The position numbers and the translations under genes are program-made. Positions 3,304 through 26,284 of a DNA stretch of 39,845 nucleotides are shown here, piece after piece. The stretch comes from Escherichia phage vB_EcoP-101120B1-2, in sequence record MZ234022.1, one strand, 5' to 3'. The notes below the pieces were generated by a model. It was given only the letters and a program-made list of their open reading frames with translations, did not search any database and was not told where the DNA came from. Positions within the stretch are counted from its first letter, which is position 1; the number at the start of each line of letters is the position of its first letter.

Positions 3304-3321
3304 ACTATCACTATAGGAAAC
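3299..3321 (+). promoter_or_regulatory. Phage RNA polymerase promoter (T7 phi17 position), motif TAAACTATCACTATAGGAAA
   Basis: One of 11 copies of the ACTATCACTATAGG core; lies in the gp16-gp17 intergenic gap, overlapping the gp16 stop codon. Confidence 0.75.
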
Positions 3322-3367
3322 TGGAGGCGCTACCATAGGTCTCCATTTAAATCACAAAGGAGGCATA

Positions 3368-5899
3368 ATGTCCACGATTACACAATTCCCTTCAGGAAAC
3401 ACTCAGTACAGGATTGAGTTCGACTACCTAGCCAGAACGTTTGTTGTTGTTACGCTGGTGAATAGCTCTAACCCTACCCTGAACCGTGTACTGGAAGTTG
3501 GTCGAGATTACCGATTCCTTAATCCAACGATGATTGAGATGTTGGTTGACCAATCAGGTTTCGACATAGTTCGTATTCACCGTCAGACTGGAACTGACTT
3601 AGTGGTAGATTTCAGGAATGGCTCAGTGTTGACAGCTAGTGACCTGACCAATTCAGAGCTTCAGGCTATCCATATTGCAGAAGAAGGTCGAGACCAAACG
3701 GTTGACTTAGCGAAGGAATATGCCGATGCTGCTGGTAGCTCTGCTGGCAACGCTAAGGATAGCGAGGACGAAGCACGCCGAATCGCTGCGAGTATCAGGG
3801 AAGCTGGTCTAATTGGCTATATTACCCGTCGCTCCTTCGAGAAAGGCTACAACGTTACAACATGGAGCGAGGTCCTGCTATGGGAAGAGGATGGTGATTA
3901 TTACCGCTGGGATGGTACGCTTCCAAAGAACGTTCCTGCTGGTTCAACTCCTGAAACTTCCGGTGGGATTGGATTAGGTGCGTGGGTTAGTGTTGGTGAT
4001 GCTGCTTTAAGAAGTCAGATTTCAAACCCGGAAGGGGCAATACTCTACCCGGAATTGCAGATGGCAAGATGGCGTGATGAGGGTGATGTTCGAGGCTGGG
4101 GTGCTAAAGGGGATGGTGTAACAGATAGTACGGAGAATATAGCTGCTTCACTAAGTTCTCAAAAAGCTGTCGTAGCATCAGAAGGTGTATTCTCTAGTTC
4201 TGGTATTAATAGTAATTACTGTAACTTAGACGGTAGGGGTAGTGGCGTGCTAAGTCACCGTTCCAGTACAGGTAACTACTTAGTATTTAACAATCCACGT
4301 ACAGGTCGCTTAAGTAATATTACGGTAGAAAGTAATAAGGCGACTGATACAACTCAGGGACAGCAGGTATCTCTTGCGGGTGGAAGCGATGTTACTGTAA
4401 GTGACGTTAACTTCTCAAACGTTAAAGGTACTGGTTTCAGTTTAATCGCATACCCTAATGATGCGCCACCTGATGGACTTATGATTAAAGGCATTCGAGG
4501 TAGCTATTCCGGCTATGCTACTAATAAGGCAGCCGGATGCGTACTTGCTGACTCCTCAGTTAACTCCCTCATAGATAACGTTATTGCTAAGAACTACCCT
4601 CAGTTCGGAGCAGTAGAGTTGAAAGGTACAGCCAGTTACAACATAGTCAGTAATGTTATAGGGGCAGATTGCCAGCATGTAACTTACAACGGCACTGAAG
4701 GGTCAATAGCTCCTTCTAATAACATTATAAAGGGGGTGATGGCTAATAACCCTAAGTATGCAGCGGTTGTTGCAGGCAAAGGAAATACTAACTTAATCTC
4801 AGACGTGCTCGTAGATTACTCAACTTCTGATGCTAGCCAGGCTCATGGCGTTACCGTAGAAGGGTCTGATAACGTCATAAATAATGTGCTTATGTCAGGA
4901 TGTGATGGTACTAACTCTTTAGGACAAAGGCAGACTGCTACAATTGCACGCTTTATAGGTACAGCTAATAACAACTATGCGTCTGTATTTCCTAGCTACA
5001 GTGCTACAGGTGTTATTACTTTCGAATCCGGCTCTACCCGTAACTTCGTAGAGGTAAAACACCCTGGCAGGAGAAACGACCTTCTCAGTTCTGCTAGTAC
5101 TATTGACGGTGCAGCTACTATTGACGGCACTAGTAATAGTAACGTAGTGCACGCACCTGCCTTAGGGCAGTACATAGGTAGTATGTCAGGTAGGTTCGAA
5201 TGGTGGATTAAGTCCATGTCACTCCCTTCAGGCGTTCTTACTTCTGCTGATAAGTACAGAATGCTTGGGGATGGTGCTGTGTCATTAGCTGTAGGTGGTG
5301 GTGCATCTTCTCAAGTTCGACTATTTACTTCTGATGGTATTTATCGGACAGTGTCCCTCACCAACGGCAACGTGCGTCTTCCTACCAGTAGCACAGGTTA
5401 TTTGCAGTTAGGTTCTAATGCAATGACCCCAGATAGTACTAATACATACGCATTAGGTTCCGCAAGTCGAGCATGGTCTGGCGGTTTTACTCAATCAGCA
5501 TTCACTGTTGTCTCAGATGCTAGGGATAAAACAGAGCCTCTTAATATCTCAGATGCTTTACTGGATGCTTGGTCTGAAGTTGACTTTGTGCAGTTTCAGT
5601 ACTTGGACCGAATTGAGGAGAAGGGTGCAGACTCAGCTAGATGGCACTTCGGCATCATCGCTCAGCGAGCTAAGGAGGCCTTCGAACGTCACGGTATAGA
5701 TGCACATCGCTATGGCTTCCTGTGCTTCGACAGTTGGGATGATGTATACGAGGAAGATGCCAATGGCTATCGTAAACTGATTACACCAGCAGGTTCCCGC
5801 TACGGTATTCGTTACGAGGAAGTACTGATATTAGAGGCTGCGTTGATGCGGCGTACTATTAAGCGTATGCAGGAAGCATTAGCTGTTATGTCTAAGTGA
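3368..5899 (+). CDS. Tailspike protein (gp17 homolog): T7-like N-terminal adaptor domain, pectate-lyase-like beta-helix depolymerase body, C-terminal intramolecular chaperone domain
   Basis: SD CAAAGGAGG upstream of ATG. N-terminus EFDYLARTFVVVTLV resembles T7 gp17 FEYLARKFVVVTLI. Central motif WGAKGDGVTDSTENIAAS is typical of pectate-lyase-3 beta-helix tailspikes. C-terminus carries SDARDK (Ser716, Lys721) in the spacing of the peptidase S74 Ser-Lys dyad. Confidence 0.85.
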   Translation: MSTITQFPSGNTQYRIEFDYLARTFVVVTLVNSSNPTLNRVLEVGRDYRFLNPTMIEMLVDQSGFDIVRIHRQTGTDLVVDFRNGSVLTASDLTNSELQAIHIAEEGRDQTVDLAKEYADAAGSSAGNAKDSEDEARRIAASIREAGLIGYITRRSFEKGYNVTTWSEVLLWEEDGDYYRWDGTLPKNVPAGSTPETSGGIGLGAWVSVGDAALRSQISNPEGAILYPELQMARWRDEGDVRGWGAKGDGVTDSTENIAASLSSQKAVVASEGVFSSSGINSNYCNLDGRGSGVLSHRSSTGNYLVFNNPRTGRLSNITVESNKATDTTQGQQVSLAGGSDVTVSDVNFSNVKGTGFSLIAYPNDAPPDGLMIKGIRGSYSGYATNKAAGCVLADSSVNSLIDNVIAKNYPQFGAVELKGTASYNIVSNVIGADCQHVTYNGTEGSIAPSNNIIKGVMANNPKYAAVVAGKGNTNLISDVLVDYSTSDASQAHGVTVEGSDNVINNVLMSGCDGTNSLGQRQTATIARFIGTANNNYASVFPSYSATGVITFESGSTRNFVEVKHPGRRNDLLSSASTIDGAATIDGTSNSNVVHAPALGQYIGSMSGRFEWWIKSMSLPSGVLTSADKYRMLGDGAVSLAVGGGASSQVRLFTSDGIYRTVSLTNGNVRLPTSSTGYLQLGSNAMTPDSTNTYALGSASRAWSGGFTQSAFTVVSDARDKTEPLNISDALLDAWSEVDFVQFQYLDRIEEKGADSARWHFGIIAQRAKEAFERHGIDAHRYGFLCFDSWDDVYEEDANGYRKLITPAGSRYGIRYEEVLILEAALMRRTIKRMQEALAVMSK
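5516..5896 (+). other. Predicted auto-cleaved C-terminal intramolecular chaperone domain of the tailspike (residues 717-843); cleavage predicted after Ser716
   Basis: SDARDK motif with Ser and Lys five residues apart, followed by a roughly 125-aa domain, as in the endosialidase/T5 L-shaped fibre chaperone domains (recalled from literature). Confidence 0.5.
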
Positions 5900-6123
5900 G
5901 TAATACTGGTACGGTATTTCGCACAATGAAATCGTTGAACACACTGACGAGGAGGGTAATGTCACTACTACGGAAGAACCTGTATACACCGAGGTGGTTA
6001 TTCACGAAGAGGGTGAGGAGTGGGGGTGTTCGGCCTGACGGAATTTTCTTTGCTGAAGCCGCTTATCAGAGAAGAAAACTGGAAAGAATCGAAGCCAGAC
6101 TTTCTGCTCTTGAACAGAAGTAA
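5896..6123 (+). CDS. Hypothetical basic protein between tailspike and holin; start uncertain (GTG 5896, ATG 5926 or ATG 5959)
   Basis: ORF from the track. Arg/Lys-rich with a C-terminal coiled-coil-like segment (RRKLERIEARLSALEQK). No well-spaced SD for any candidate start; T7 has no gene here. Confidence 0.25.
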   Translation: MSNTGTVFRTMKSLNTLTRRVMSLLRKNLYTPRWLFTKRVRSGGVRPDGIFFAEAAYQRRKLERIEARLSALEQK

Positions 6124-6233
6124 TAAACAAAACCATTTTGCCATTAGGTTGGTGGGGTAGAGACTAACTACACGCTAACCAACGTATGTAACAACTTTGG
6201 GTCACGGACGACCCGCTTTAAACTGGAGGTTTT

Positions 6234-6428
6234 ATGATTGAGTTAGACTTCAAGAATGAGGTCCTTAAAGCCTCTCCTATCGTCGGGACCGCTGCGGCTG
6301 ATGGTGCCAGTCGGTTCTTCTTCGGACTTACACTGAACGAATGGTTCTACGTTGCAGCTATCGCGTACACCGTTGTCCAGATTGGTGTGCTAGTCTACAA
6401 AACGATTAAAGGAGGTGGTAAAACATGA
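6234..6428 (+). CDS. Type II holin (gp17.5 homolog)
   Basis: MIELDFKNEVLKASPIVGTAAADGASRFFFGLTLNEWFYVAAIAYTVVQIG closely matches T7 gp17.5 as recalled; single hydrophobic segment; SD GGAGG. Confidence 0.85.
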   Translation: MIELDFKNEVLKASPIVGTAAADGASRFFFGLTLNEWFYVAAIAYTVVQIGVLVYKTIKGGGKT

Positions 6429-6688
6429 CGCAGATGGACTTAGAGAAGTTCCTCTTGATGCTGGATACTGAACGTGCTAGACTCATGCTGCAAGACCTGC
6501 GGGATGACTCTAAGCGTTCACCTCAGCTTTACAACGCCATTGAGAAGCTACTGGCTCGTCACAACTTCGTGCTAAGTAAGGTGTCTGTGGACGAGAAGAC
6601 GCTGGCTGATATGGAGGCCCTGAACGCAGAGTACGATAAGGTGCTTTCAGCGACTGAGGATAATGACACCGGGTATGGCGTTCAATAA
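6425..6688 (+). CDS. Terminase small subunit / DNA maturation protein A (gp18 homolog)
   Basis: 87 aa at the T7 gene 18 position; FLLMLDTERARLMLQDL...SPQLYNAIEKLLARH resembles T7 gp18 ITFLEMLDTAMAQRMLADL...SPQLYNAINKLLDRH. Confidence 0.85.
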   Translation: MTQMDLEKFLLMLDTERARLMLQDLRDDSKRSPQLYNAIEKLLARHNFVLSKVSVDEKTLADMEALNAEYDKVLSATEDNDTGYGVQ

Positions 6689-6692
6689 GTGT

Positions 6693-6736
6693 TAGACTCA
6701 AGGTCATTACTATATGTAGTGGCCTTTATGGTTAAC
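6693..6736 (+). promoter_or_regulatory. Conserved RNA hairpin, late family copy 1 (candidate RNase III processing site, T7 R18.5 position)
   Basis: TAGACTCAAGGTCAT...GTGGCCTTTATG shared with 16336..16379 and 23562..23602. Stem AAGGUCA/UGGCCUU (one G-U) is conserved while the loops differ. Confidence 0.45.
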
Positions 6737-6789
6737 ACTAACTAGTGGAGGAGACTCTACGTGAAATCTGATAAACCGGGAGGGCAACT

Positions 6790-7233
6790 ATGCTCGAATT
6801 TTTAAAGAGAGCGGCTCCGTGGTTACTTGCAGCAGTGATGTTTGCTGGTGGCTACCACACCGCTAACAATAAGTGGGAGGCTAAGGTAAATGCAGAATAC
6901 ACCTCGAATCTTAAGGCATCGGAGGATACAAGGCTTGCTGTCCAAGCTGAAGTCAACAAAGTGTCCAAACGGTTTCAGGACGAAATGTCCTCGCTGGAAG
7001 GCAGCACTGACAGGATTATTGCTGACCTTCAGTCTGACAATAAGCGGCTGCGCATCCGAGTCAAACCTACGAGTGGAACCACGCAAAGTGACGGTCGATG
7101 CGTCATTGATGGTTACGCCGAACTTGACGAACGAGATGCTAAACGTCTTATCTCCATCGGACTGAAAGGGGACGCTTGGATTAAAGCACTACAGGATACT
7201 ATCCGCAAACTTCAACAAGACAAGGAGAAATGA
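6790..7233 (+). CDS. Rz-like i-spanin (gp18.5 homolog)
   Basis: MLEFLKRAAPWLLAAVMFAGG N-terminal TM segment; ...STDRIIADLQSDNKRLRIRVK...DERDAKRLI...GDAWIKALQDTIRKLQ matches T7 gp18.5 as recalled. Confidence 0.85.
   Translation: MLEFLKRAAPWLLAAVMFAGGYHTANNKWEAKVNAEYTSNLKASEDTRLAVQAEVNKVSKRFQDEMSSLEGSTDRIIADLQSDNKRLRIRVKPTSGTTQSDGRCVIDGYAELDERDAKRLISIGLKGDAWIKALQDTIRKLQQDKEK
6890..7165 (+). CDS. Rz1-like o-spanin lipoprotein (gp18.7 homolog), embedded in the +1 frame of the Rz gene
   Basis: Contains lipobox-like LTISGC followed by ASES...VDASLMVTPNLTNEMLNV, matching T7 gp18.7. Embedded Rz/Rz1 architecture. Exact start uncertain. Confidence 0.65.
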   Translation: MQNTPRILRHRRIQGLLSKLKSTKCPNGFRTKCPRWKAALTGLLLTFSLTISGCASESNLRVEPRKVTVDASLMVTPNLTNEMLNVLSPSD

Positions 7234-7670
7234 TGCTCAGTGATTCGTATTTCTATGATGAGTCCAGTAAGTCTGGCCTGAAGTCCCTGCGTTCTGGTAA
7301 GGATGTGGGGTGTGTGGGAAACCACGGGTATTATCAGGTAGGAACTCGACGTCATGGACTCCTGCTGGCCCATAGAGTCGTCTGGGAGCTAACCAACGGT
7401 CCTATACCAGAAGGGATGGAGATTGACCATATCGACCGCTGCCGGACTAACAACAGGCTGGACAACCTCCGGCTAGTTACTTCAAGCGAGAACTCCTGCA
7501 ACACCTCAGGACATTCCGACTCAAAGACTGGAGTTAAGAACATATCGTTCCATCAGAATGGCTACGCTATCGAGGTCATGCGTAAGGGGGTCCGTATGCG
7601 AACAACACGTCCTACTTTAGAGGAGGCTATCTCTGTCCGGGACCTAATGCTGGAGGGACTCTATGTCTAA
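7230..7670 (+). CDS. HNH homing-endonuclease-like protein inserted between the spanin and large-terminase genes
   Basis: Motif [30 protein letters not shown] (His-Asn-Asn HNH core with Cys ligands); ATGATG start after SD AAGGAGA; overlaps the gp19 start by 8 nt. Absent at this position in T7. Confidence 0.75.
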
Positions 7671-9429
7671 GAAAACACCTGCTGAAAGACAGGCTGAAAT
7701 GACCCAAAGGATGAGGGACGACTTCGTGTTCTTCATCTTCGTTCTCTGGAAAGCGCTGAGCCTTCCGGTTCCAACCAGATGTCAGATAGATATGTGTAAG
7801 AAGCTGGCTGCTGGCGATAACCGACGCTTCATCCTTCAGGCGTTCCGAGGTATTGGCAAATCGTTTCTGACCTGTGGTTTCGTGGTCTGGAAGCTATGGA
7901 ATAACCCAGACTTGAAGTTCATGATTGTGTCGGCCTCAAAGGAGCGAGCCGATGCTAACTCCATCTTCATCAAGCGAATCATCGACCTCATGCCTCAGCT
8001 TCAGGAACTCAAACCTAAGCAGGGACAGCGAGATGCGGTTATTAGCTTCGACGTGGGACCTGCCAAGCCAGACCACTCACCTTCGGTTAAGTCCGTTGGT
8101 ATCACTGGTCAGTTGACTGGTAGTCGTGCTGACATCCTGATTGCCGATGACGTGGAGGTTCCGAACAACTCAGCGACTCAGGCTGCACGAGACCGTCTAT
8201 CAGAGCTTGTGAAAGAGTTCGACGCTATCCTGAAGCCGGGAGGTACGATCATCTATCTGGGTACTCCTCAGAACGAGATGACCCTGTACCGTGAGCTGGA
8301 AGGTCGTGGGTACACCACTACTATCTGGCCCGCTCGTTATCCACGCGACAGGAAGGACTGGCAGTCTTACGGCGACCGTCTGGCTCCTATGCTTCAGGCA
8401 GAGCTGGAAGAGGACCCTGAGTCCTTCTACTGGCGTCCGACTGATGAAGTACGCTTCGATGATACGGACCTGAAGGAACGTGAGCTGTCCTACGGTAAAG
8501 CTGGCTTCGCTCTACAGTTCATGCTTAACCCGAACCTGAGTGATGCCGAGAAGTACCCTCTTAAGCTCCGTGACCTTATCGTAGCCGACTTGGACCCAGC
8601 GTCCAGCCCAATGGCCTACCAATGGTTGCCGAACCCTCAGAACAAGCGTGAGGACGTTCCTAACGTTGGACTCATGGGTGACTCGTACCACACGTATCAG
8701 ACTGTAGGTTCTGCCTTCAGCTCATACACCCAGAAGATTCTGGTCATTGACCCTAGTGGTCGTGGTAAGGATGAAACTGGATATGCGGTACTGTACCAGC
8801 TCAACGGCTACATCTTCGCTATGGAAGTTGGTGGCATGCGTGGTGGTTATGAATACTCTACGCTGGAAGCCTTGGCTAAGATTGGTCGTAAGTGGAGGGT
8901 AAACGAATACGTCATTGAGGGTAACTTCGGTGATGGTATGTACCTTGAGCTATTCAAGCCTGCATCGGCCCGTATCCATCCTGCGGCTGTAACTGAAGTG
9001 AAGAGTAAGGGTCAGAAAGAACTACGCATCTGTGACGTTCTGGAGCCTATCATGGGGTCTCACAGACTTATCGTTAACGCTGCTGCTATCGTCCAAGACT
9101 ACCAGACAGCCTCTGACAAGGATGGTGTTCGTAACCCTATCTACTCTCTATTCTATCAGATGACACGTATCTCTCGTGAGCGTGGAGCCTTGGCACACGA
9201 TGACCGACTTGATGCGCTGGCTATCGGTGTACAGTTCTTCGTTGAGTCGATGGCTAAGGATGCCAACAAAGGCGAACGTGAAGTCACTGAGGAATGGCTG
9301 GAGGAACAGATGGAGAACCCACGGAAAGGCTTCGAGTCCATCCACACTGAGTTCTGGGACAATGGGGTCCGGGTAACTCACGATACGGACGACGAGCTTG
9401 GACTAGGGTCATACGTTACGTTCCACTAG
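7663..9429 (+). CDS. Terminase large subunit / DNA maturation protein B (gp19 homolog)
   Basis: 588 aa; long stretches match T7 gp19 ([91 protein letters not shown]). Confidence 0.95.
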
Positions 9430-9523
9430 CTGAATGAATAATTATAGGTGAAAGCCGCATGAATACGCGGTTAGTAACCTATAGTTACTACCAGTCTAAC
9501 ATACTGTTTTACAAGGAGTTTGG

Positions 9524-9546
9524 ACTTAACTATCACTATAGGGAAG
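9524..9546 (+). promoter_or_regulatory. Phage RNA polymerase promoter near the right genome end (phiOR-like), CTTAACTATCACTATAGGGAAG
   Basis: Core ACTATCACTATAGG, downstream of the gene 19 stop. Confidence 0.7.
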
Positions 9547-9726
9547 ACCCCCGGTTACTTATAGTATTACTGTAGTGAATATACATATGCAGACTTTATG
9601 CAAGACCTTAGGAGGCAGACTCCGAGTTCTTACCTAAGGCTTGCACCGATGGAAGGAGGGTGATATTAATCATAATCCCTCCAATACAGATAGTCACCGA
9701 CCATAGATACAGGAGGTATGTAGCAT

Positions 9727-9885
9727 ATGGCAAAGACCAAAGCTGTACTTAAAGCTCTGGCGACCAATCGAGCTACATACAGGTTTCTTGCTGCTGTTCT
9801 ACTTGCTGCTGGCGTTACTGCTGGAAGTCAGGGGGTCGGGTGGGTCGAGACTCTCGTATGTTCTCTGGTGTCTGAGTGTCGTTAA
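9727..9885 (+). CDS. Small hydrophobic protein (52 aa), candidate gp19.5 analogue
   Basis: ATG preceded by SD AGGAGG; MAKTKAVLKALATNRATYRFLAAVLLAAGVTAGSQGVGWVETLVCSLVSECR. Under the 60-aa track threshold. Position corresponds to T7 gene 19.5. Confidence 0.4.
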   Translation: MAKTKAVLKALATNRATYRFLAAVLLAAGVTAGSQGVGWVETLVCSLVSECR

Positions 9886-10121
9886 CGCCGTAATGGTAAC
9901 AATCAACGAAAGTAAGACCTAAGGTCAGTTCATAGCTGACGCTACTCTACTGACCTTAGCTACTGTAGTCAAGGACTTTAGGTAACACCTTAAAAGAAGC
10001 TCACTTAGGGTCATCCTACTTATTGGTCTATCCTAGTGTCGCCTGACCTACGGTCCTTGACCTACAGTAGCTGGTTCCTAAGGAGGGACGATGAGTTTTG
10101 GACCAAAAGTTTGAGACCACA

Positions 10122-10310
10122 TCTCACAGTTCAAGAACATCAAGTCTCCCCCATAGGCCTCTTTCAGTCCAGACCAAAGGCCCTACCCCAGTCTATCATA
10201 AGGTTGGACCGATGGTCAAGACTTCAGGTCAACGATAGGTTGTGGCTATGGCTTAGGGAAGGACGATAGGTTGGGACTATGGGTCTGTCTTTGAGTCTCT
10301 ATCTGTATCA
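10122..10310. repeat. Predicted direct terminal repeat / concatemer junction region (present once in this circular assembly); genome left end predicted near 10122
   Basis: TCTCACAGTT...CCCCCATAGG...GTCTGTCTTTGAGTCTCTATCTGT resembles the T7 left end TCTCACAGTG...CCCCCATAGGGGG...GTTTGTCTTTGGGTG...CCCTATCTGTTACAGTC as recalled. Boundaries are approximate. Confidence 0.3.
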
Positions 10311-10324
10311 GACCTTGAGTCACT

Positions 10325-10381
10325 ACCTACAGTCTAACTACCTACAGTCATCGACCATCGGTAATGCCGCTACCTACAGTC
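10325..10381. repeat. Three direct copies of ACCTACAGTC (10325, 10340, 10372), with related copies GACCTACGGT / GACCTACAGT at 10044-10070
   Basis: Seen directly in the sequence. Analogous in position to the short repeat arrays beside the T7 terminal repeat. Confidence 0.5.
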
Positions 10382-10507
10382 ATCGACCTACGGTTAATAG
10401 ACACAAGGATATAGACTTAAGGTCTAATACATGTTAGTCAAAGACTATATCCTCTTAGTCACTATGGGGCCGACGATAGCTTAATCAATATTATTTAAGA
10501 TTACCTA

Positions 10508-10536
10508 TTGACTACAGGTCCAGACTATGGCTTAAT
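10508..10536 (+). promoter_or_regulatory. Host sigma70-type early promoter (T7 A1-like): -35 TTGACT, 17-bp spacer, -10 CTTAAT
   Basis: TTGACT at 10508-10513 and CTTAAT at 10531-10536; downstream ACGACACGGCAAC resembles the T7 A1 transcribed region ACACGGCGAA. Confidence 0.45.
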
Positions 10537-10648
10537 AGCTTCCGTCAACACGACACGGCAACAACCGGATAGTGAAGACGCCGGGTCATCCCGGTTAAGT
10601 AGACAGCCTGATAAGTCATACGAACAACAGGCAGATGACAGAAAGTAG

Positions 10649-10678
10649 TTGACAAGATGTACCGACTTAAAGTAGTAT
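10649..10678 (+). promoter_or_regulatory. Host sigma70-type early promoter (T7 A2/A3-like): -35 TTGACA, 18-bp spacer, -10 TAGTAT
   Basis: GTAGTTGACAAGATGTACCGACTTAAAGTAGTATGTACCACATC resembles T7 A3 TTGACAACATGAAG...TACGATGTACCACATG. Confidence 0.45.
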
Positions 10679-10790
10679 GTACCACATCAACACGAAACAA
10701 CGGTGACGACCAACACTGAAACGGTCTACCTGAAGTCCTCTGACTGAAGGGAATGCTCTTTAACAATCTGGATAAACTCTTAATGTGCGC

Positions 10791-10854
10791 CGACAGTGAT
10801 TAACTACAGGGTCTTTGAGTCTACATCTGAAGGCCCTGACTGATAGTCACTAAC
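10791..10854 (+). promoter_or_regulatory. Conserved 64-nt hairpin, early family copy 1 (candidate RNase III site, T7 R0.3 position)
   Basis: Near-identical to 11939..12002 (one mismatch); shorter variant at 11119..11171. Upper stem CAGGGTCTT/AAGGCCCTG, lower stem AGTGA/TCACT, separated by an internal loop, as in T7 RNase III sites. Confidence 0.55.
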
Positions 10855-10861
10855 TTAACGG

Positions 10862-11116
10862 ATGGACACTATGAAACACTTAAGCACAATCACTAATCGC
10901 AATGAAGTATTCGTGAACACTAAAGGTTATGCGTGGATTCAGCTTAAAGAGATGAGAGGAGCGCGTCACCGTGTGGTAGTTCGCAAGGTATCAAGCAAGC
11001 CGTTCAGCAACTACAGCGTAGATACTATGCGTATAGACAACGAGACTTACCTGATAGACTCGCAGATAACCGTGCGTCCTACAGCGGGCATCTCAGCTCC
11101 TTATTTCGCTAACTGA
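10862..11116 (+). CDS. Hypothetical early protein (84 aa), first gene of the early operon, upstream of the Ocr homolog
   Basis: ORF bracketed by two copies of the conserved early hairpin; MDTMKHLSTITNRNEVFVNTKGYAWIQLKEMRGARHRVVVRKV...; basic. No T7 counterpart recognised. Confidence 0.55.
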   Translation: MDTMKHLSTITNRNEVFVNTKGYAWIQLKEMRGARHRVVVRKVSSKPFSNYSVDTMRIDNETYLIDSQITVRPTAGISAPYFAN

Positions 11117-11118
11117 GA

Positions 11119-11171
11119 GTGATTAACTACAGGTCGTTAGACTGATAGCGGCCTGACTGATAGTCACTAAC
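11119..11171 (+). promoter_or_regulatory. Conserved hairpin, early family copy 2 (shorter variant) immediately upstream of the Ocr homolog
   Basis: GAGTGATTAACTACAGG...GGCCTGACTGATAGTCACTAAC shares both flanking arms with copies 1 and 3. Confidence 0.45.
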
Positions 11172-11199
11172 ACATAATTAACTTTGAGAGGATATAACT

Positions 11200-11706
11200 A
11201 TGGAACGTAATGCTAACGCATACTATGAGCTGCTGGCTGCAACCGTTGAGGCATTTATCGAGCGTATTCAGTACGACCACCTGACTCAAGATGATGACTA
11301 CAGCGATGCGCTGCATGAGGTCGTAGACGGTCAGGTTCCACACTATTACCACGAGATTTTTACGGTGATGGCTGCTGATGGTATAGACCACGAGTTCGAA
11401 GACTCTGGGCTGATGCCTGAAACCAAGGACGTAACGCGTATCCTACAAGCTCGCATCTATGAGGCGCTTTATAACGATGTGTCTAATAGCTTGGATGTAG
11501 TCTGGTTTGAGGATGAAGAGGCAGAAGAAGAGGATGAATATTGGGTAGTTGACGCTAAAACAGGCGCAATAATTGTGCAAGCTGTAGCTCTTGAGGTCGC
11601 TACTGCATGTACCAAGGTTAACTATGCGGCAGGTCGCCACCTGAAGGTGGAAGACATCAATGATAACGTAGTGTTCGACCCTGCGGCTGAGGACTGCGAG
11701 CGATGA
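11200..11706 (+). CDS. ocr: Ocr-like DNA mimic (gp0.3 homolog, anti-restriction) with an extra C-terminal region of about 45 aa
   Basis: [43 protein letters not shown] matches T7 Ocr [43 protein letters not shown]. The acidic run [10 protein letters not shown] corresponds to the T7 C-terminus but the ORF continues (168 vs 117 aa). Confidence 0.85.
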
Positions 11707-11873
11707 TAACTTACGGTTTATGCCAGCACCACGTCACCAACGCCCGACTTATGGTCAAGACCGGGCGGTTAACCCATGATGAGACTATGCGTCTCCTGAA
11801 GGTGGTCTACAAGCGCCGCAAGCGCATACACGACAGTTTGCACGCTGAGGATAACCAACAATGCTCCAGATAA
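11703..11873 (+). CDS. Small hypothetical early protein (56 aa), basic
   Basis: ATGA overlap with the Ocr stop; [56 protein letters not shown]; weak RBS. Confidence 0.3.
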
Positions 11874-11938
11874 CTTATAGCAGCGAACAAGCGTTCTACG
11901 ACGGGTGCTACGAGATGATGAAGCGCGATACTTGCTAG

Positions 11939-12002
11939 CGACAGTGATTAACTACAGGGTCTTTGAGTCTACATCTGAAGGCCCTGACTGATAGCCACTA
12001 AC
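11939..12002 (+). promoter_or_regulatory. Conserved 64-nt hairpin, early family copy 3 (candidate RNase III site)
   Basis: 63 of 64 nt identical to 10791..10854; immediately upstream of ORF 12019. Confidence 0.55.
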
Positions 12003-12018
12003 AACTGAGAGGACAGAT

Positions 12019-12246
12019 ATGAACACAATCACTGGTGCCATAGCCAAAGGTTTTCGAGCAATTTTCAGTGAATCGCAAGAAGTATGCACCAATCATAAAT
12101 TCGTACTTTCTTGCGTAGTAGGGGACGAGTTTGACGGATTCGATAAACTGGTGGTTTGCGACCATTGTGGACAAGAGGCTATCCAACGCTCAAACGGTAA
12201 ATTTGAATTAATAGACGATAGCCTTACAGAAGGAGACGGCGAGTAA
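12019..12246 (+). CDS. Hypothetical early protein (75 aa) with Cys-containing motif (C..C...CDHCG), possible zinc ribbon
   Basis: SD GAGAGGA upstream of ATG; MNTITGAIAKGF...VCTNHKFVLSCVVGDEFDGFDKLVVCDHCGQEAIQ; acidic C-terminus. Confidence 0.55.
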   Translation: MNTITGAIAKGFRAIFSESQEVCTNHKFVLSCVVGDEFDGFDKLVVCDHCGQEAIQRSNGKFELIDDSLTEGDGE

Positions 12247-12378
12247 CCTAGATAAACAGGAGAGAACCAAATCGTAGCTTGACCATAACGCTGACAGGTG
12301 GATACTGAGTGATAGACGAGAGGCCGTCGAATGATAGGTGGCCTCAAAGATTATCACTTGAATTAATAGGAGTTAACT

Positions 12379-12468
12379 ATGAGTGTGGGATATTGGGTCT
12401 GCCTAGCGCCAGTTATCTGGATGATAGGCTATGGGTTATACGACTGTATTAAACGGAAATCACTATGA
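12379..12468 (+). CDS. Tiny hydrophobic peptide (29 aa), putative
   Basis: SD AGGAG 6 nt upstream of ATG; MSVGYWVCLAPVIWMIGYGLYDCIKRKSL; ATGA overlap with the next ORF. Confidence 0.25.
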   Translation: MSVGYWVCLAPVIWMIGYGLYDCIKRKSL

Positions 12469-12662
12469 GTCTTGCACTATTGATAGCCATAGGCTATGGA
12501 CTTATCGCATACGTGCTGGTGAGAGACATCAACAAGGCACGTAAAGTCTATAAATTCAACTATGTACGTATGGTCCGCTGGACTGTACGTCAACCTAACG
12601 GACGATTCCTGCGCAATTTAGCGAACGTCTGGGATATAGCAACTCTTGGGAGCAAACTGTAA
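12465..12662 (+). CDS. Hypothetical early membrane protein (65 aa), N-terminal TM segment
   Basis: MSLALLIAIGYGLIAYVLV then basic tail; translationally coupled to its neighbours. Confidence 0.45.
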   Translation: MSLALLIAIGYGLIAYVLVRDINKARKVYKFNYVRMVRWTVRQPNGRFLRNLANVWDIATLGSKL

Positions 12663-12988
12663 TGAACAAGTCATACGGGATTAATCTGGTACACTCTATG
12701 GACGCAGAAATGAACATGTTAAGCCTACTGGCTACCGGGTATCGTCACGGAACGTCAAGTCACACCGCACGTCAACAGCAGGAGAGGGACCGTGTACTAC
12801 AGGCGCGACTCAGGGCAGAGGGCCATAAGTCCGAACTGATGTGTCTGGCGTATGGCGGACGACCGATCACTGACGATGGTAAACTTCTGGTATCAGGCTG
12901 GAAGGCGATAGACCAACGGTCAACCATCAAGCACACGACTCACGGTGACTTCAGCCGTCTCCACGCTAACCCACTGATATGCAAGTGA
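12662..12988 (+). CDS. Hypothetical early protein (108 aa), last gene before the RNA polymerase gene
   Basis: ORF at the position T7 uses for gene 0.7, but far too short to be the 359-aa kinase and no kinase motifs seen. Confidence 0.5.
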   Translation: MNKSYGINLVHSMDAEMNMLSLLATGYRHGTSSHTARQQQERDRVLQARLRAEGHKSELMCLAYGGRPITDDGKLLVSGWKAIDQRSTIKHTTHGDFSRLHANPLICK

Positions 12989-12993
12989 TTATG

Positions 12994-13016
12994 ACTTAAC
13001 TATCACTATAGGACTC
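12994..13016 (+). promoter_or_regulatory. Phage RNA polymerase promoter immediately upstream of the RNA polymerase gene, CTTAACTATCACTATAGGACTC
   Basis: Core ACTATCACTATAGG; +1 about 75 nt upstream of the gene 1 ATG; leader contains direct repeats AAGTGAAAGAC x2. Confidence 0.7.
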
Positions 13017-13085
13017 AAGGTCTAAGACTCCAAGTGAAAGACCAAAGAGACTTTAAGTGAAAGACTAATAACAAGGACTTTAAGT

Positions 13086-15767
13086 ATGAGCGTCATCTCT
13101 ATTGACAAACACGACTTCTCTGATGTGTCGAACGCCATTGAGCCGTTTAACCTGCTGGCTGACCACTACGGGCAAGACCTTGCAGTCAAACAGCTTCAGC
13201 TTGAGCATGAGGCCTACACTGAAGGTGAGCGACGTTTCATCAAGAACCTTGAGCGTCAGACCGAGCGAGGGGAACTGGCAGACAATCAGGTCGCCAAGCC
13301 TTTGATGCAGACTCTGGTTCCTAAGATTGCGCAAGCCGTCAAGGAGTGGCACGAAGGTCCAGACGGGAAGCTGTCAACCTCACGTCCGAGCGTAGCGTTC
13401 ACCATGTTAAGCACTGAAGAGAAGGCCGTCAAGGACCGCTCTCTTCGCATCTCCTGCGAGTCTGCTGCGGTTATCATACTGAAGGTCATCCTCTCCAAGC
13501 TGGTCAAGCCTGAAGGTATACCGATTACACCGATGGCCTCCGCGATAGGTCGCACACTTGAGGATGAAATCCGATTCGGTCGCATTCGTGACAAGGAGAA
13601 GGAGCACTTCAAGAAGGCGATAGCTGATAACCTGAACAAGAGAGCCGGGGCATCATACAAGAAAGCCTACATGCAAGCGGTCGAGACATCCATGCTGGAG
13701 CAAGGCCAACTAGAAGATGCGTGGGGAACTTGGAGTCCGACCGAGGCTGTCCACGTTGGAATCAAGATGCTGGAGATTGTCATACAGTCAACACAACTGG
13801 TCAAGCTTAAGCGTTACGGTGCTGGCAATGCAGCGGCTGACGTTGAGATGGTCCACCTGTCAGACTTCTGGGTCAAGAAGATGGCACAACGAGGATTCAG
13901 CCTTGCGGGTATCGCCCCAGTCTACCAGCCTTGCGTCGTTCCGCCTAAGCCGTGGACTGGTGTCGTAGGCGGTGGGTATTGGGCCAAAGGTCGAAGACCA
14001 TTGCCACTGATTCGCTTAGGGTCTAAGTCTGCGGTAGCACGTTATGAAGACGTATACATGCCTGAAGTCTATGAAGCTGTGAATATCATCCAGAATACAC
14101 CTTGGAAAGTGAACAAGAAGGTATTGGACGTGGTGAACAGGGTCGAGAAGCTGAACAACACGCCTATTAATGACATCCCTCAGATGGAACCGCTGAAGCC
14201 TGAGGACTATGCTGGTGAAACCGAGGAGGAACTCAAGGCATGGAAGAAGGCTGCTGCTGGTATCTATCGCCGCGAGAAGGCCAGACAGTCACGCAGATTA
14301 TCACTGAGCTTTATCGTTAACCAAGCAAACAAGTTCTCTCAGTTCAAGGCCATCTGGTTCCCGTACAACATGGATTGGCGAGGTCGTGTCTACGCTGTCC
14401 CGATGTTCAACCCTCAGGGTAACGACATGCAGAAGGGGCTCCTGACTCTGGCAGTCGGCAAGCCTATTGGTGCTGACGGTTTCAAATGGCTGAAGGTCCA
14501 CGGTGCAAACTGTGCGGGTGTCGATAAAGTCACCTTCGATGAGCGCATCAAGTGGGTGGAAGACAACCACGAAAACATCATGGCTGCTGCTAAGGCACCG
14601 ATGGATAGCATTGAGTGGTGGGGCAAGTTAGACTCTCCGTTCTGCTTCCTAGCGTTCTGCTTCGAGTATGCTGGCGTAATGCACCACGGCTTGTCTTACT
14701 CCTGCTCGCTGCCGATAGCGTTCGATGGGTCCTGCTCTGGGATTCAGCACTTCAGCGCTATGCTTCGCGACCACATCGGTGGACATGCAGTAAACCTGAC
14801 GCCATCCGGTAAGGTCCAAGACATCTACCGCATCGTGTCTGACCGCATTGAGGAGGAGCTTAAAGTCCTACTGGTTAACGGTACGGACAACGAGATGGTA
14901 ACTCACGAGGACAAGAAAACTGGTGAGATTACCGAGCGTCTCAAGCTGGGGACACGAGAGCTTGCCCGTCAGTGGCTGACCTACGGTATGTCACGAAAGG
15001 TCACTAAGCGTTCGGTCATGACTCTGGCCTACGGGTCGAAAGAGTACGGCTTCGCAGACCAAGTTTACGAGGACATCGTGATGCCAGCGATTGACTCAGG
15101 GTCTGGCGCTATGTTCACTGAACCAAGCCAAGCAGCTCGCTTCATGGCTAAGATGATTTGGGAAGCTGTGAGTGTGACCGTAGTTGCTGCGGTTGACGCG
15201 ATGAAATGGCTTCAGGGTGCTGCCAAGCTGCTTGCTGCTGAAGTGAAGGACAAGAAGACTGGAGAAATCCTGAAGCCTTGTCTTCCGGTACACTGGGTCA
15301 CACCTGATGGTTTCCCTGTCTGGCAGGAATACCGAAAGAAGGACACCACTCGTCTGAACCTGATGTTCTTAGGGTCATTCAACCTTCAGCCTACCGTCAA
15401 CAAAGGCACGAAGAAAGAGCTGGACAAGCACAAGCAGGAGTCAGGCATTAGCCCGAACTTCGTCCACTCACAAGATGGTAGCCACCTCCGCAAGACTGTA
15501 GTCCACACGCACCGCAAATATGGCGTGATGTCATTCGCAGTGATTCACGATAGCTTCGGGACCATCCCGGCTGACGCTGAGTATCTGTTCCGTGGAGTCC
15601 GTGAGACGATGGTCGAGACCTACCGCGACAACGATGTGCTGCTTGACTTCTACGAGCAGTTTGAATACCAGCTTCACGAGAGCCAGAGAGACAAGTTGCC
15701 TGAGCTTCCTAAGAAAGGTAAACTGAATATCGAAGACATCTTGTCTTCAGACTTTGCATTCGCTTAA
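13086..15767 (+). CDS. Single-subunit DNA-dependent RNA polymerase (gp1 homolog)
   Basis: 893 aa, collinear with T7 RNAP (883 aa): RFGRIRD, FQPCVVPPKPWTG, AIWFPYNMDWRGRVYAV, FNPQGNDM, DGSCSGIQHFSAMLRD, VTKRSVMTLAYGS, FVHSQDGSHLR, IHDSFGT, C-terminal DFAFA. Confidence 0.98.
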   Translation: MSVISIDKHDFSDVSNAIEPFNLLADHYGQDLAVKQLQLEHEAYTEGERRFIKNLERQTERGELADNQVAKPLMQTLVPKIAQAVKEWHEGPDGKLSTSRPSVAFTMLSTEEKAVKDRSLRISCESAAVIILKVILSKLVKPEGIPITPMASAIGRTLEDEIRFGRIRDKEKEHFKKAIADNLNKRAGASYKKAYMQAVETSMLEQGQLEDAWGTWSPTEAVHVGIKMLEIVIQSTQLVKLKRYGAGNAAADVEMVHLSDFWVKKMAQRGFSLAGIAPVYQPCVVPPKPWTGVVGGGYWAKGRRPLPLIRLGSKSAVARYEDVYMPEVYEAVNIIQNTPWKVNKKVLDVVNRVEKLNNTPINDIPQMEPLKPEDYAGETEEELKAWKKAAAGIYRREKARQSRRLSLSFIVNQANKFSQFKAIWFPYNMDWRGRVYAVPMFNPQGNDMQKGLLTLAVGKPIGADGFKWLKVHGANCAGVDKVTFDERIKWVEDNHENIMAAAKAPMDSIEWWGKLDSPFCFLAFCFEYAGVMHHGLSYSCSLPIAFDGSCSGIQHFSAMLRDHIGGHAVNLTPSGKVQDIYRIVSDRIEEELKVLLVNGTDNEMVTHEDKKTGEITERLKLGTRELARQWLTYGMSRKVTKRSVMTLAYGSKEYGFADQVYEDIVMPAIDSGSGAMFTEPSQAARFMAKMIWEAVSVTVVAAVDAMKWLQGAAKLLAAEVKDKKTGEILKPCLPVHWVTPDGFPVWQEYRKKDTTRLNLMFLGSFNLQPTVNKGTKKELDKHKQESGISPNFVHSQDGSHLRKTVVHTHRKYGVMSFAVIHDSFGTIPADAEYLFRGVRETMVETYRDNDVLLDFYEQFEYQLHESQRDKLPELPKKGKLNIEDILSSDFAFA

Positions 15768-18817: not shown

Positions 18818-18992
18818 TGATATTGTGTATTACTGTGTAGTATGCGCCGGAGTTGGAGCACTAATCCTTTTAATATATTGGGCCATAGAGGTGTAATATG
18901 GAAAAGCCGAGTGAGTGGTGCGAGCGTAAATTTGAGGAGACAGGTAACGTCGATTACCTTCAGCTCTACAACTTATGGAAGGAGCGTGGTCT

Positions 18993-19151
18993 ATGACTGA
19001 CGTAGAGAAGAAGTACATCGTGGAGCTTGAGGGTCGCATTCAGTCCTTCGAGGTTCCGGTGTACGCAAAGTCTCTTGAAGAGGCTACCCTGAAGTCCCAA
19101 GAGTATGAGGACGCTGGGTTTGTGGTCGGACGGATTCGCCCTGAGACCTAA
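18993..19151 (+). CDS. gp2 homolog (inhibitor of host RNA polymerase), 52 aa
   Basis: [33 protein letters not shown] matches T7 gp2 [42 protein letters not shown]. Below the track threshold. Confidence 0.75.
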
Positions 19152-25794: not shown

Positions 25795-26078
25795 TGGCTA
25801 TTACTAAACGTATTCGTGTGAGTTTTGATCTGAAGATGGTTGCTAACTCAAAGGAAGAAGATACCATGTGTCGCCAACTGGCTGATATGACTAAAGCCTA
25901 CGCTGAGGGTGAGAAGCTGGATGGTCTTCAGTTGGCTCTGGTCAAAACCGCAATCGAGTCAGGCCCTGAGTCTGCCCTTGAAATTGCCCTCAAGAAGACC
26001 ATCAAGGAGAAGCTGGTAGACGACTTTGGTTATGGCCAGTTCGGAGTATCTAACCTGCGATTCGAGGTCAAGCAATGA
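25794..26078 (+). CDS. gp5.5-like protein (94 aa)
   Basis: TAATG overlap with the gp5 stop; [22 protein letters not shown]... at the T7 gene 5.5 position. Confidence 0.6.
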   Translation: [94 protein letters not shown]

Positions 26079-26284
26079 GTGAATACTTACGGGTCCTAGC
26101 GGCCCTTAAGTCCTGCCCGAAGACCTTCCAGTCCAACTATGTGCGCAACAACGCTGCACTTGTGGCTGAGGCTGCGAGTCGTGGACATCTAAGCTGCCTG
26201 TCTATGGATGGGCGTAACAACGGTGCGTGGGAGATTACCGCTGCTGGCACCAAGTTCCTGAACCAACACGGAGGATGCCTGTGA
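26075..26284 (+). CDS. gp5.7 homolog
   Basis: MSEYLRVLAALKSCPKTFQSNYVRNNAALVAEAASRGHLSCLS...GAWEITAAGTKFL matches T7 gp5.7 MSDYLKVLQAIKSCPKTFQSNYVRNNASLVAEAASRGHISCLS; identical length (69 aa). Confidence 0.9.
   Translation: MSEYLRVLAALKSCPKTFQSNYVRNNAALVAEAASRGHLSCLSMDGRNNGAWEITAAGTKFLNQHGGCL

Follow-up and report, generated by a model that had tools for sequence, protein, structure and literature searches.

Probable hairpin-bounded gene cassettes and alternative kinase and Ocr modules in the early operon of a K1F-lineage Kayfunavirus

We analyzed the region upstream of gene 1 in Escherichia phage vB_EcoP-101120B1-2 (sequence record MZ234022.1), whose whole stretch of 39,845 nucleotides (nt) is called the window here. 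We consider it likely that positions 10500 to 13085 of the window are the class I (early) operon of a K1F-lineage Kayfunavirus, built from cassettes that are bounded by RNase III-type hairpins and with a modular choice between a protein kinase and the DNA mimic Ocr. A preliminary description of this region, made from the letters alone, had noted that the gp0.7 kinase of T7 is missing and that several uncharacterized small open reading frames (ORFs) are present, and had proposed these ORFs, especially those of 84 and 75 amino acids (aa), as candidates for new inhibitors. Every ORF on its list is present where it had been placed, and the kinase is indeed missing. The layout is that of many deposited phages, and the kinase has not simply been lost; in related phages it alternates with the Ocr module.

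The window is a complete T7-like genome in circularly permuted form, around which homologs of T7 gp1 to gp19.5 map in order. Positions 10400 to 13100 are 99.5 to 99.7% identical to the Kayfunavirus genomes vB_EcoP-PM129, -101120B2, and -22664UKE3-2, all deposited as Escherichia phages, and 93 to 97% identical to many other deposited phages. The seven early ORFs and the gene that follows them are the following:

10871 to 11116, plus strand: gp0.2, 81 aa (84 aa, 10862 to 11116, if the start is at 10862); small, basic, predicted all-beta protein, mobile accessory gene
11200 to 11706, plus strand: DNA mimic of the Ocr type, 168 aa, extended by about 50 aa at its C terminus (PF08684, E value 3.5e-30; phrog_2568, E value 4e-54)
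11703 to 11873, plus strand: gp0.35, 56 aa; remote homolog of T7 Gp0.4, predicted FtsZ inhibitor
12019 to 12246, plus strand: acidic Cys/His protein of 75 aa, probably zinc-ribbon-like, mobile accessory gene (phrog_32657, E value 9e-51)
12379 to 12468, plus strand: microprotein of 29 aa with one hydrophobic helix and a basic C terminus (IKRKSL); 17 variants of constant length in related loci
12465 to 12662, plus strand: gp0.37, 65 aa; T3 gp0.6 family, N-terminal transmembrane helix and basic tail
12662 to 12988, plus strand: gp0.38, 108 aa, core at about residues 25 to 108; group-specific early protein (phrog_7066, E value 7e-45; 216 phage records)
13086 to 15767, plus strand: gene 1, single-subunit RNA polymerase, 893 aa, 63% identical to T7 gp1 over 898 aligned positions; 3' boundary of the early region

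Six of the seven early ORFs matched families of the PHROG database (E values of 1e-25 to 1e-54), the exception being the 29-aa ORF. The record NC_007636 of phage K1F annotates genes 0.1, 0.2, 0.3, 0.35, 0.36, 0.37, 0.38, and 1, and the K1F names used above correspond to the ORFs of the window as follows:

84-aa ORF: gp0.2 of K1F, 94% aa identity
56-aa ORF: gp0.35 of K1F, 92% identity
65-aa ORF: gp0.37 of K1F (0.6 in the other K1F record), 92% identity
108-aa ORF: gp0.38 of K1F, 73% identity over the core

K1F (NC_007456, NC_007636) has the gene order of the window in common, carries two of the hairpins described below (B and C) at the same sites, has no kinase, and encodes an Ocr (gp0.3) that is 81% identical to that of the window. 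The window differs from K1F by an extra cassette with hairpin A' and the 75-aa ORF, by the 29-aa ORF at the place of the 55-aa gp0.36 of K1F, by 7 more residues in gp0.35, and by a longer N terminus of gp0.38. Judging from these deposited genomes, a kinase-less layout with small ORFs is the ordinary, already deposited state of K1F-type phages.

The early region of T7 runs from the A1-A3 promoters through R0.3, 0.3 (ocr), 0.4, R0.5, 0.5, 0.6, the 0.7 kinase, and R1 to gene 1. T7 and the window share homologous host promoters, Ocr, a Gp0.4-like gene that overlaps the stop codon of ocr, a hairpin of the RNase III type with a gene for a small hydrophobic peptide behind it, and gene 1 in last position. 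The window differs from T7 in that homologs of gp0.7, gp0.5, and gp0.6 are absent by sequence, an additional gene (gp0.2) and a hairpin precede ocr, gp0.37 and gp0.38 precede gene 1, and gene 1 has a phage promoter before it where T7 has the E. coli C promoter.

The absence of the kinase was clear in our searches. Translated searches (tblastn) of the whole window with T7 and T3 gp0.7 gave a best E value of 0.76, no early ORF had a kinase match in Pfam or in PHROGs, where the gp0.7 kinase stands as phrog_2828 and phrog_15752, and no plus-strand ORF from the host promoters to gene 1 is larger than Ocr. As a positive control, the same gp0.7 queries picked up a kinase in each of 16 T7-like loci and in six Kayfunavirus-type loci. 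The Ocr homolog was likewise confirmed, with 104.9 bits against PF08684 (cut-off of 25) over residues 8 to 95 and 63.5% identity to T7 Ocr over 74 aa, and the protein is strongly acidic (isoelectric point [pI] of 4.1, net charge of -30). It is 168 aa long compared to 117 aa in T7, and the additional C-terminal residues (about 118 to 168), which are common to K1F, do not resemble an acidic repeat. By mimicking DNA, Ocr blocks type I restriction and BREX. Membership of the window protein in this family is firm, and the same activity against type I restriction and BREX is predicted for it.

Is the absence of the kinase a trait of the whole genus? This was ruled out by a scan of 33 related early regions, six of which (L041, L042, L047, L048, L050, and L051) encode a 244-aa kinase that matches phrog_15752 from end to end (E value of 5e-110). 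The same six loci encode a T3-type S-adenosylmethionine (SAM) lyase (PF23780, E value of 5e-40), and none of them encodes Ocr. Shigella phage SFP21B, a Kayfunavirus according to NCBI, carries SAM hydrolase, protein kinase, gp0.37, gp0.38, and RNA polymerase in that order. Close copies of the short kinase (at least 80% identity) occur in about 43 phage records, compared to 216 records with gp0.38. Roughly 20% of the close relatives thus have a kinase. In the six loci, as in SFP21B (locus L058, positions 2201 to 2935), the short kinase spans the whole of the 260-position phrog_15752 but only positions 47 to 225 of the 366-position gp0.7 model; on the basis of this partial alignment, it seems to be without the C-terminal shut-off and DNA-binding domain of T7 gp0.7.

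By gene content, the group has at least two interchangeable front modules, Ocr with gp0.35 or SAM lyase with kinase. A common core lies 3' of either module and consists of hairpin C, the 29-aa ORF and/or gp0.36, gp0.37, and gp0.38. Since the 29-aa ORF or gp0.36, gp0.37, and gp0.38 also adjoin the kinase in other Kayfunaviruses, they are not substitutes for it. The absence of the kinase from the window would then reflect which anti-restriction module the lineage carries, namely, Ocr with a Gp0.4-like protein here and SAM lyase with the short kinase elsewhere.

The second element of the operon is a set of four hairpins, which are predicted to be RNase III processing signals:

10795 to 10851, plus strand: hairpin A, 5' of gp0.2; -23.2 kcal/mol, folding z score of -3.2, layout of T3 R0.3 and R0.5
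11118 to 11168, plus strand: hairpin B, equivalent of R0.3, 5' of ocr, recombination point of cassettes; z score of -4.3
11943 to 11999, plus strand: hairpin A', in the 75-aa cassette; mutated copy of A, z score of just -1.3
12308 to 12358, plus strand: hairpin C, equivalent of R0.5; z score of -2.0 for the 132-nt stretch that holds it

The first and third of these hairpins lie in a 64-nt direct repeat (10791 to 10854 and 11939 to 12002, 98% identical), of which a partial third copy is found at 11115 to 11171, and each copy stands directly 5' of an ORF. All four hairpins have one architecture, with a lower stem of 8 bp, a small asymmetric internal loop, an upper stem of 9 to 11 bp (GGUC/GGCC), and a terminal loop. 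The annotated R0.3 and R0.5 sites of T3 have the same dot-bracket pattern and can be aligned in sequence; in T7 and T3, R0.3, R0.5, and R1 are likewise two-stem hairpins just 5' of early genes. Unlike those sites, two sites of the window are 98% identical at a distance of 1.1 kb, and the copy number varies among sibling phages. We surveyed 27 early regions (the window and 26 related loci), in which the two-stem fold is kept in 27 of 28 hairpin sequence variants. An RNAalifold consensus of 18 variants, including the two T3 sites, contains 18 pairs, seven of which have changes on both sides (compensatory). Hairpin C was found in 21 of the 27 regions, directly 5' of the 29-aa ORF or of gp0.36. 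An ATG follows within 20 to 32 nt 3' of each hairpin, with a clear Shine-Dalgarno site for Ocr, the 75-aa ORF, and the 29-aa ORF and a weak one for gp0.2. RNase III cuts at these sites would yield four messages, encoding gp0.2; Ocr and gp0.35; the 75-aa protein; and the 29-aa protein, gp0.37, and gp0.38.

One potential alternative is that the hairpins are not RNase III sites and serve to attenuate transcription, or that they mark the ends of a small mobile element with the ORFs as its cargo. Sequence identity among the copies is very high (98% over 64 nt, and 100% for copies of hairpin B), and the copies flank units that come and go, as terminal repeats of a mobile cassette would. However, there is no U-tract 3' of any of the hairpins, and a terminator scan found no terminator there. 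The repeats are direct, not inverted, and neither a transposase nor an integrase is present. The match in stem-loop layout and sequence to the annotated RNase III sites R0.3 and R0.5 of T3 also counts against this alternative, as does the fixed position of hairpin C in all of the regions (21 of 27) that yielded it. We consider this alternative very unlikely and retain the reading of the hairpins as putative RNase III sites.

Three sibling genomes that are nearly identical across the early region differ at hairpin B:

Window: one copy of hairpin B
101120B2: hairpin B twice in tandem at a spacing of 55 nt, with no gene in between
PM129: hairpin B twice at a spacing of 349 nt, on either side of a 92-aa ORF (phrog_9817)

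An insertion of the same size as that of PM129 is present in 22664UKE3-2. In another locus (L054), the 92-aa ORF stands before gp0.2, so that the order is reversed, and hairpin B is again found at the junctions. Differences among siblings by one hairpin-bounded unit, together with the order in L054, are expected if repeated hairpins supply the homology for unequal recombination. Clustering of the early ORFs of 25 loci revealed a stable core and a varied periphery, the latter with gp0.2, the 92-aa ORF, the 75-aa ORF, a 174-aa protein of phrog_11084, a DUF7300 protein, a helix-turn-helix protein, an endonuclease VII gene, and several singletons. In the model that we propose, the repeated hairpins would act as portable homology, and recombination between them would add, delete, and reorder cassettes.

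The 75-aa ORF provides a case in which the source of a cassette can be traced. Two features define its insertion:

11939 to 12282, plus strand: inserted cassette with hairpin A' (11943 to 11999), a Shine-Dalgarno site, the 75-aa ORF, and an orphan ribosome-binding site
11861 to 11938, plus strand: 5' 25 codons of a truncated backbone ORF ('C4'), recognized by ORF clustering and by alignment with relatives lacking the cassette

In 14 related loci, the C4 ORF is about 41 aa long, follows gp0.35, and extends as far as hairpin C. In the window, the last 24 nt of C4 are found again at 12283 to 12306, and the flanks of the cassette are contiguous in relatives. The insert comprises about 345 nt, the first part of which is a copy of hairpin A, while the rest (11992 to 12272) is 86.5% identical to DNA of the Kagunavirus siphophage XY1. 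The two parts join at a short TAG(T/C)C motif common to both, within the 3' arm of the hairpin, and this position accounts for the one T-to-C change by which hairpin A' is weakened. The insert ends with AACAGGAGAGAA, which in XY1 is the ribosome-binding site of the next gene and in the window precedes nothing. The XY1-like DNA, the junction, the orphan AACAGGAGAGAA, and the split ORF together point to transfer from a siphophage into a podophage. The cassette would have entered by the joining of a hairpin A copy to Kagunavirus-like siphophage DNA, with the backbone ORF being split.

The distribution of the 75-aa ORF is narrow. It was found in 56 phage records, all of them Kayfunavirus or siphophages of 42 to 46 kb, with 74 to 100% aa identity, and in 3 of the 27 surveyed early regions. 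The two siphophages that we checked (XY1 and K1ind1) are Kagunavirus, and in XY1 the ORF is the first gene beside a divergent DicA-like regulator. Compared to a siphophage copy, the ORF of the window has 20 synonymous and five nonsynonymous codon differences. The family makes up five clusters among 5.8 billion proteins, and a profile search of 1.84 billion representative proteins returned its own cluster only. In this protein, which the preliminary description had noted for a Cys motif, C23-x2-H26, C32, and C47-x2-C50 are invariant in all six clusters of homologs and H49 varies; CxxH and CxxC would be the two metal-binding knuckles of a zinc-ribbon-like protein. The protein has a pI of 4.5; its AlphaFold2 model is weak (predicted local distance difference test [pLDDT] of 59), and no fold match was obtained from that model.

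The other mobile gene, gp0.2, probably starts at the second ATG (10871), because most of its homologs are 81 aa long. The protein is predicted to be all-beta with six strands (pLDDT of 76) and has a pI of 10.1, and its structural relatives in BFVD are solely uncharacterized proteins of other podophages. Homologs are found in the early small-ORF arrays of unrelated virulent phages, with identities of 70 to 73% in Phapecoctavirus myophages, 34 to 49% in N4-like Gamaleyavirus, and 65 to 67% in Klebsiella T7-like phages. The comparison with the copy in the 154-kb Phapecoctavirus phiWec186 revealed 33 synonymous and 22 nonsynonymous codon differences. Among the 27 surveyed early regions, which are of Kayfunavirus type, gp0.2 was present in seven, always with Ocr and only in kinase-less loci. 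A 141-kb myovirus contig (L059) has, at 1295 to 8240, an array of over 20 small ORFs (47 to 123 aa) in one orientation, and a gp0.2 homolog is among them. The same array includes a protein like T7 gp1.1 (PF08200), and accessory arrays of large myophages are thus a place where small T7-type early genes circulate.

Could some of the listed ORFs be chance reading frames? They are very short (29 to 84 aa), and deposited annotations do hold evidently spurious ORFs over the promoter region. Every listed ORF is, however, conserved at the protein level across many phages, the synonymous and nonsynonymous differences point to purifying selection, and Shine-Dalgarno sites precede the Ocr, 75-aa, and 29-aa ORFs. 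Doubt is confined to the extra three codons of the 84-aa form, and we regard chance frames as extremely improbable and the ORFs as genes.

Several points weigh against the hairpin-cassette model as a whole. The model draws on 27 early regions and one sibling trio. Rfam contains no family that matches the hairpins (E values up to 1), and the predicted cleavage by RNase III is read from their architecture and their homology to T3 and T7 sites. A pattern search of K1F and Pipis found no copy of hairpin A 5' of gp0.2. The 75-aa ORF was inserted through a microhomology junction, not by a clean hairpin-to-hairpin exchange. In addition, homology and fold searches with gp0.2, the 75-aa protein, and gp0.38 found no support for any function. 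Scans of all seven early ORFs against Pfam, NCBIfam, and PADLOC, the last being a defense-system library that does not hold anti-defense proteins, returned nothing for gp0.2, the 75-aa ORF, the 29-aa ORF, or gp0.38, and profile searches of the PDB with gp0.2, the 75-aa protein, and gp0.38 gave nothing better than an E value of 0.8.

The kinase of T7 has been reported as a broad anti-defense factor (PMC13645617). In this light, the lineage may have lost such a factor, and its small ORFs, above all those of 84 and 75 aa, may be new inhibitors of defense that compensate for the loss, as kinase-less relatives plausibly need other tools. The behavior of the two genes would fit: both are variably present, exchanged between unrelated virulent coliphages, and under purifying selection, gp0.2 was found only in kinase-less loci, and in its small size and acidity the 75-aa protein resembles many protein inhibitors. 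Most kinase-less relatives, however, lack both gp0.2 (present in 7 of 27 regions) and the 75-aa ORF (present in 3 of 27). Moreover, other Kayfunaviruses have the kinase together with the 29-aa ORF, gp0.37, and gp0.38; known T7 and T3 families include gp0.35 and gp0.37; and neither homology nor fold links any of these proteins to a known inhibitor (the lack of a PADLOC match being read with the scope of that library in mind). Taken together, these data leave compensation for a lost kinase a possible but doubtful explanation, and we prefer an exchange of front modules accompanied by optional cargo.

Silas et al. (bioRxiv 10.1101/2023.04.06.535777) described phage accessory regions with fast-turnover anti-defense genes. 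The region studied here resembles theirs in being a hotspot beside ocr with variable small genes that are exchanged between phages, and it differs in that the borders of the cassettes coincide with RNA-processing hairpins. The idea that the early ORFs had already been screened in that work was rejected: for five ORFs, gp0.2 and the 75-aa ORF among them, none of the conserved peptide words occurs in its 200-gene sequence table, in which T7 Ocr, our control, is present. The same absence counts against the compensation hypothesis.

As optional cargo, gp0.2 and the 75-aa protein would most probably bind and neutralize a host factor or a defense protein. This best guess is based on their early expression, small size, extreme charge, optional presence, and transfer across phage families. 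That their target is specifically a defense system is a tentative suggestion, which we consider less likely than not being so. A more specific version is more speculative still: the 75-aa protein, and perhaps gp0.2, would be an unrecognized inhibitor of a defense system common in capsulated extraintestinal E. coli, captured from a Kagunavirus that shares the host, within a hairpin-exchanged toolkit that replaces the kinase. The proposal in the preliminary description that the small ORFs are uncharacterized candidate inhibitors thus survives in part. It can be kept for the 84-aa and 75-aa ORFs, which have no assignable function, gave no functional lead in profile searches or structure prediction, and behave as mobile accessory genes. 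It does not extend to the 56-aa ORF, a Gp0.4 homolog, or to the 65-aa ORF, a member of the T3 gp0.6 family, both of which gave database matches to the 0.4-0.6 genes of the T7 group; in addition, gp0.2, gp0.35, gp0.37, and gp0.38 were already listed in K1F records.

T7 Gp0.4 is described as an inhibitor of FtsZ polymerization (Kiro et al. 2013, as cited in PMC9372555; PMC13423816). A plain tblastn search of the window with T7 gp0.4 misses the 56-aa ORF. T7 gp0.4 nevertheless matches phrog_5058, the family of the 56-aa ORF, with an E value of 9e-5; both proteins match phrog_25044; and pairwise BLASTP gives 32% identity over 41 residues (E value of 0.001). Comparison of the two families with hhalign, using alignments of 10 Kayfunavirus and 13 T7-type sequences from viral contigs, yielded a probability of 91% and an E value of 1e-6 over 40 of about 50 columns. 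The gene position agrees as well, since the 56-aa ORF starts at 11703 and overlaps the stop of ocr (which ends at 11706), and in T7 gene 0.3 ends and gene 0.4 starts at 1278. The T7 protein has 51 aa and an acidic C terminus, compared to 56 aa and a basic C terminus here. On these sequence comparisons, gp0.35 is a remote homolog of Gp0.4, with the caveat that the family alignments are short and of low diversity (effective number of sequences of about 1.3 to 1.6).

In T7 Gp0.4, residues V15, V22, W28, M32, L35, and Y39 are needed for FtsZ inhibition (PMC13423816, 2026), while A12, T14, L16, S19, and R23 are needed only for sensing by CapRel-Ebc (PMC13423816). The two sets fare very differently in the window:

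FtsZ inhibition: T7 V15, V22, W28, M32, L35, Y39; window V11, V18, H25, M29, L32, Y36; five of six identical
CapRel-Ebc sensing: T7 A12, T14, L16, S19, R23; window Q, H, T, R, K; none of five identical

The identity at the FtsZ interface (five of six) compares with 13 of 40 aligned columns overall (hypergeometric P = 0.0095). Since the residues in contact with FtsZ are preserved and those in contact with CapRel are replaced, gp0.35 is predicted to be a natural Gp0.4 variant that blocks division yet escapes the CapRel-Ebc sensor. During K1F infection, FtsZ is mislocalized and cells form filaments with multiple Z-rings; the authors of that study stated that K1F lacks the 0.4 gene and that an unknown peptide is responsible (PMC9372555, 2022). 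Our literature search found no later work linking K1F, FtsZ, and gp0.4. Given the homology to Gp0.4 and a block of FtsZ in K1F by an unknown factor, gp0.35 is the obvious and best candidate for the K1F division inhibitor. As a diverged Gp0.4, it would bind FtsZ, block division, and account for the filamentation caused by K1F.

An alternative is that the 56-aa ORF shares its ancestry with Gp0.4 but no longer targets FtsZ, and that another early protein, such as a membrane peptide or gp0.38, blocks division in K1F. The one FtsZ-inhibition residue that differs is W28, which is His in the window, and a W28L change in T7 Gp0.4 abolishes FtsZ binding (PMC13423816), so that binding by gp0.35 is not assured. 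The overall identity of the two proteins is just about 32%, and the C-terminal half of gp0.35 is much more basic than that of T7 Gp0.4 (pI of 10). These points count against FtsZ as the target. The pattern of five of six identical interface residues and none of five CapRel-contact residues is, on the other hand, the one that conservation of FtsZ binding as the function would produce; the gene has the position of T7 0.4 and its overlap with the ocr stop; and K1F does block FtsZ (PMC9372555). We therefore judge loss of FtsZ targeting to be the less probable outcome, though one to be taken seriously, and retain gp0.35 as the predicted inhibitor of FtsZ and cell division.

The genes 3' of hairpin C belong to the common core. 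An AGGAG Shine-Dalgarno site lies 8 nt 5' of the 29-aa ORF, which occupies the slot after R0.5 that is held in T7 by the hydrophobic gp0.5; no sequence homology to T7 gp0.5 was found. In some relatives, the 29-aa ORF stands in tandem with the 55-aa gp0.36, and in others just one of the two is present, in both cases 3' of hairpin C. The next gene product, gp0.37, is 40% identical to T3 gp0.6 by tblastn (E value of 7e-7), and both match phrog_2385 (E values of 2.4e-31 and 9e-30, respectively). T3 gp0.6 is also 65 aa long with an N-terminal hydrophobic helix. In gp0.37, the hydropathy peak of 2.3 is at residues 1 to 19, and the pI is 11. T7 gp0.6A is a reported inhibitor of MreB; gp0.37 falls outside its PHROG (phrog_8393). 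The 29-aa protein and gp0.37 would be small membrane proteins of the T7 0.5/T3 0.6 slot.

The last early gene, gp0.38, occurs with either the Ocr module or the kinase module. We rejected gp0.38 as a remnant of the shut-off domain of gp0.7, since hhalign against T7 and T3 gp0.7 gave a probability of 0.1% and gp0.38 coexists with the kinase in SFP21B. Homologs come in forms of 83 to 86, 108, 130, and 139 aa that differ in the N-terminal part alone, and one form carries a 32-residue insert, LRTFTDKNGVEWEYVGTDSRGRNYWEKTG. Within the last 20 residues, H91, H99, H101, and C107 are invariant or nearly so. In four loci (in L050 at 2818 to 3252, and three others), an endonuclease VII/HNH-type gene (PF02945, E value of 3e-24) lies between gp0.37 and gp0.38 and resembles an insertion of the homing-endonuclease type.

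Three promoters frame the operon:

10508 to 10536, plus strand: A1-like host sigma-70 promoter (TTGACT, 17-nt spacer, CTTAAT), which aligns base for base with the T7 A1 block and with K1F
10649 to 10678, plus strand: A2/A3-like host promoter (TTGACA, 18-nt spacer, TAGTAT), with 10 of 12 consensus positions, the best match in the region
12991 to 13014, plus strand: phage-RNA-polymerase-type promoter of a repeat family of 10 to 11 copies, TAAACTATCACTATAGG, kept in 20 of 26 related loci

Host promoter function is predicted for 10508 to 10536 from its homology to T7 A1. The second promoter closes the stretch of alignment with the A1-A2 promoter region of T7. Just 3' of it, a GTACCACAT box resembles the box after T7 A3; this is a comparison by eye, as the alignment does not pair the window with T7 there. 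Host RNA polymerase would start at the two host-type promoters and produce a single long early transcript. The phage promoter, TTAACTATCACTATAGG, lies 72 nt 5' of the start codon of gene 1, and the polymerase gene could therefore be transcribed by its own product. In the T7 record, only an E. coli promoter is annotated before gene 1. Other T7 inhibitors of host RNA polymerase are gp2 and gp5.7. Homologs of both are retained in the window (at 18990 to 19142 and 26075 to 26281, respectively), and host RNA polymerase shut-off would still be covered by them.

A 46-aa ORF at 10508 to 10648, named gp0.1 in one K1F record, overlaps the A1/A2-like promoter block. It is probably not a gene, because that block is conserved with T7 and is noncoding there, and other hypothetical proteins annotated at 9459 to 10648 in sibling records look equally doubtful. 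Further upstream, a gp19.5 homolog lies at 9727 to 9885, a phage promoter at 9521 to 9542 resembles phiOR, and the physical left end of the genome is expected near 10087 by offset from K1F. Owing to the circular permutation, the window starts within gene 16.

The re-examination of this region adds a cassette architecture at RNase III-type hairpins, in which the gain and loss of cassettes and the capture of one from a siphophage are directly evidenced. A literature search, partial in its coverage and no proof of novelty, found nothing relevant on recombination at RNase III sites in T7-like phages. The siblings 101120B1-2, 101120B2, and 22664UKE3-2/PM129 are ready material for the study of both accessory-gene function and recombination at RNA-processing sites. 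For the question of the FtsZ inhibitor of K1F, which has been left open, gp0.35 (49 to 56 aa) is a specific candidate that can now be named. Finally, the alternation of kinase and Ocr within one genus offers a natural set of phages in which the benefit of either module can be compared.

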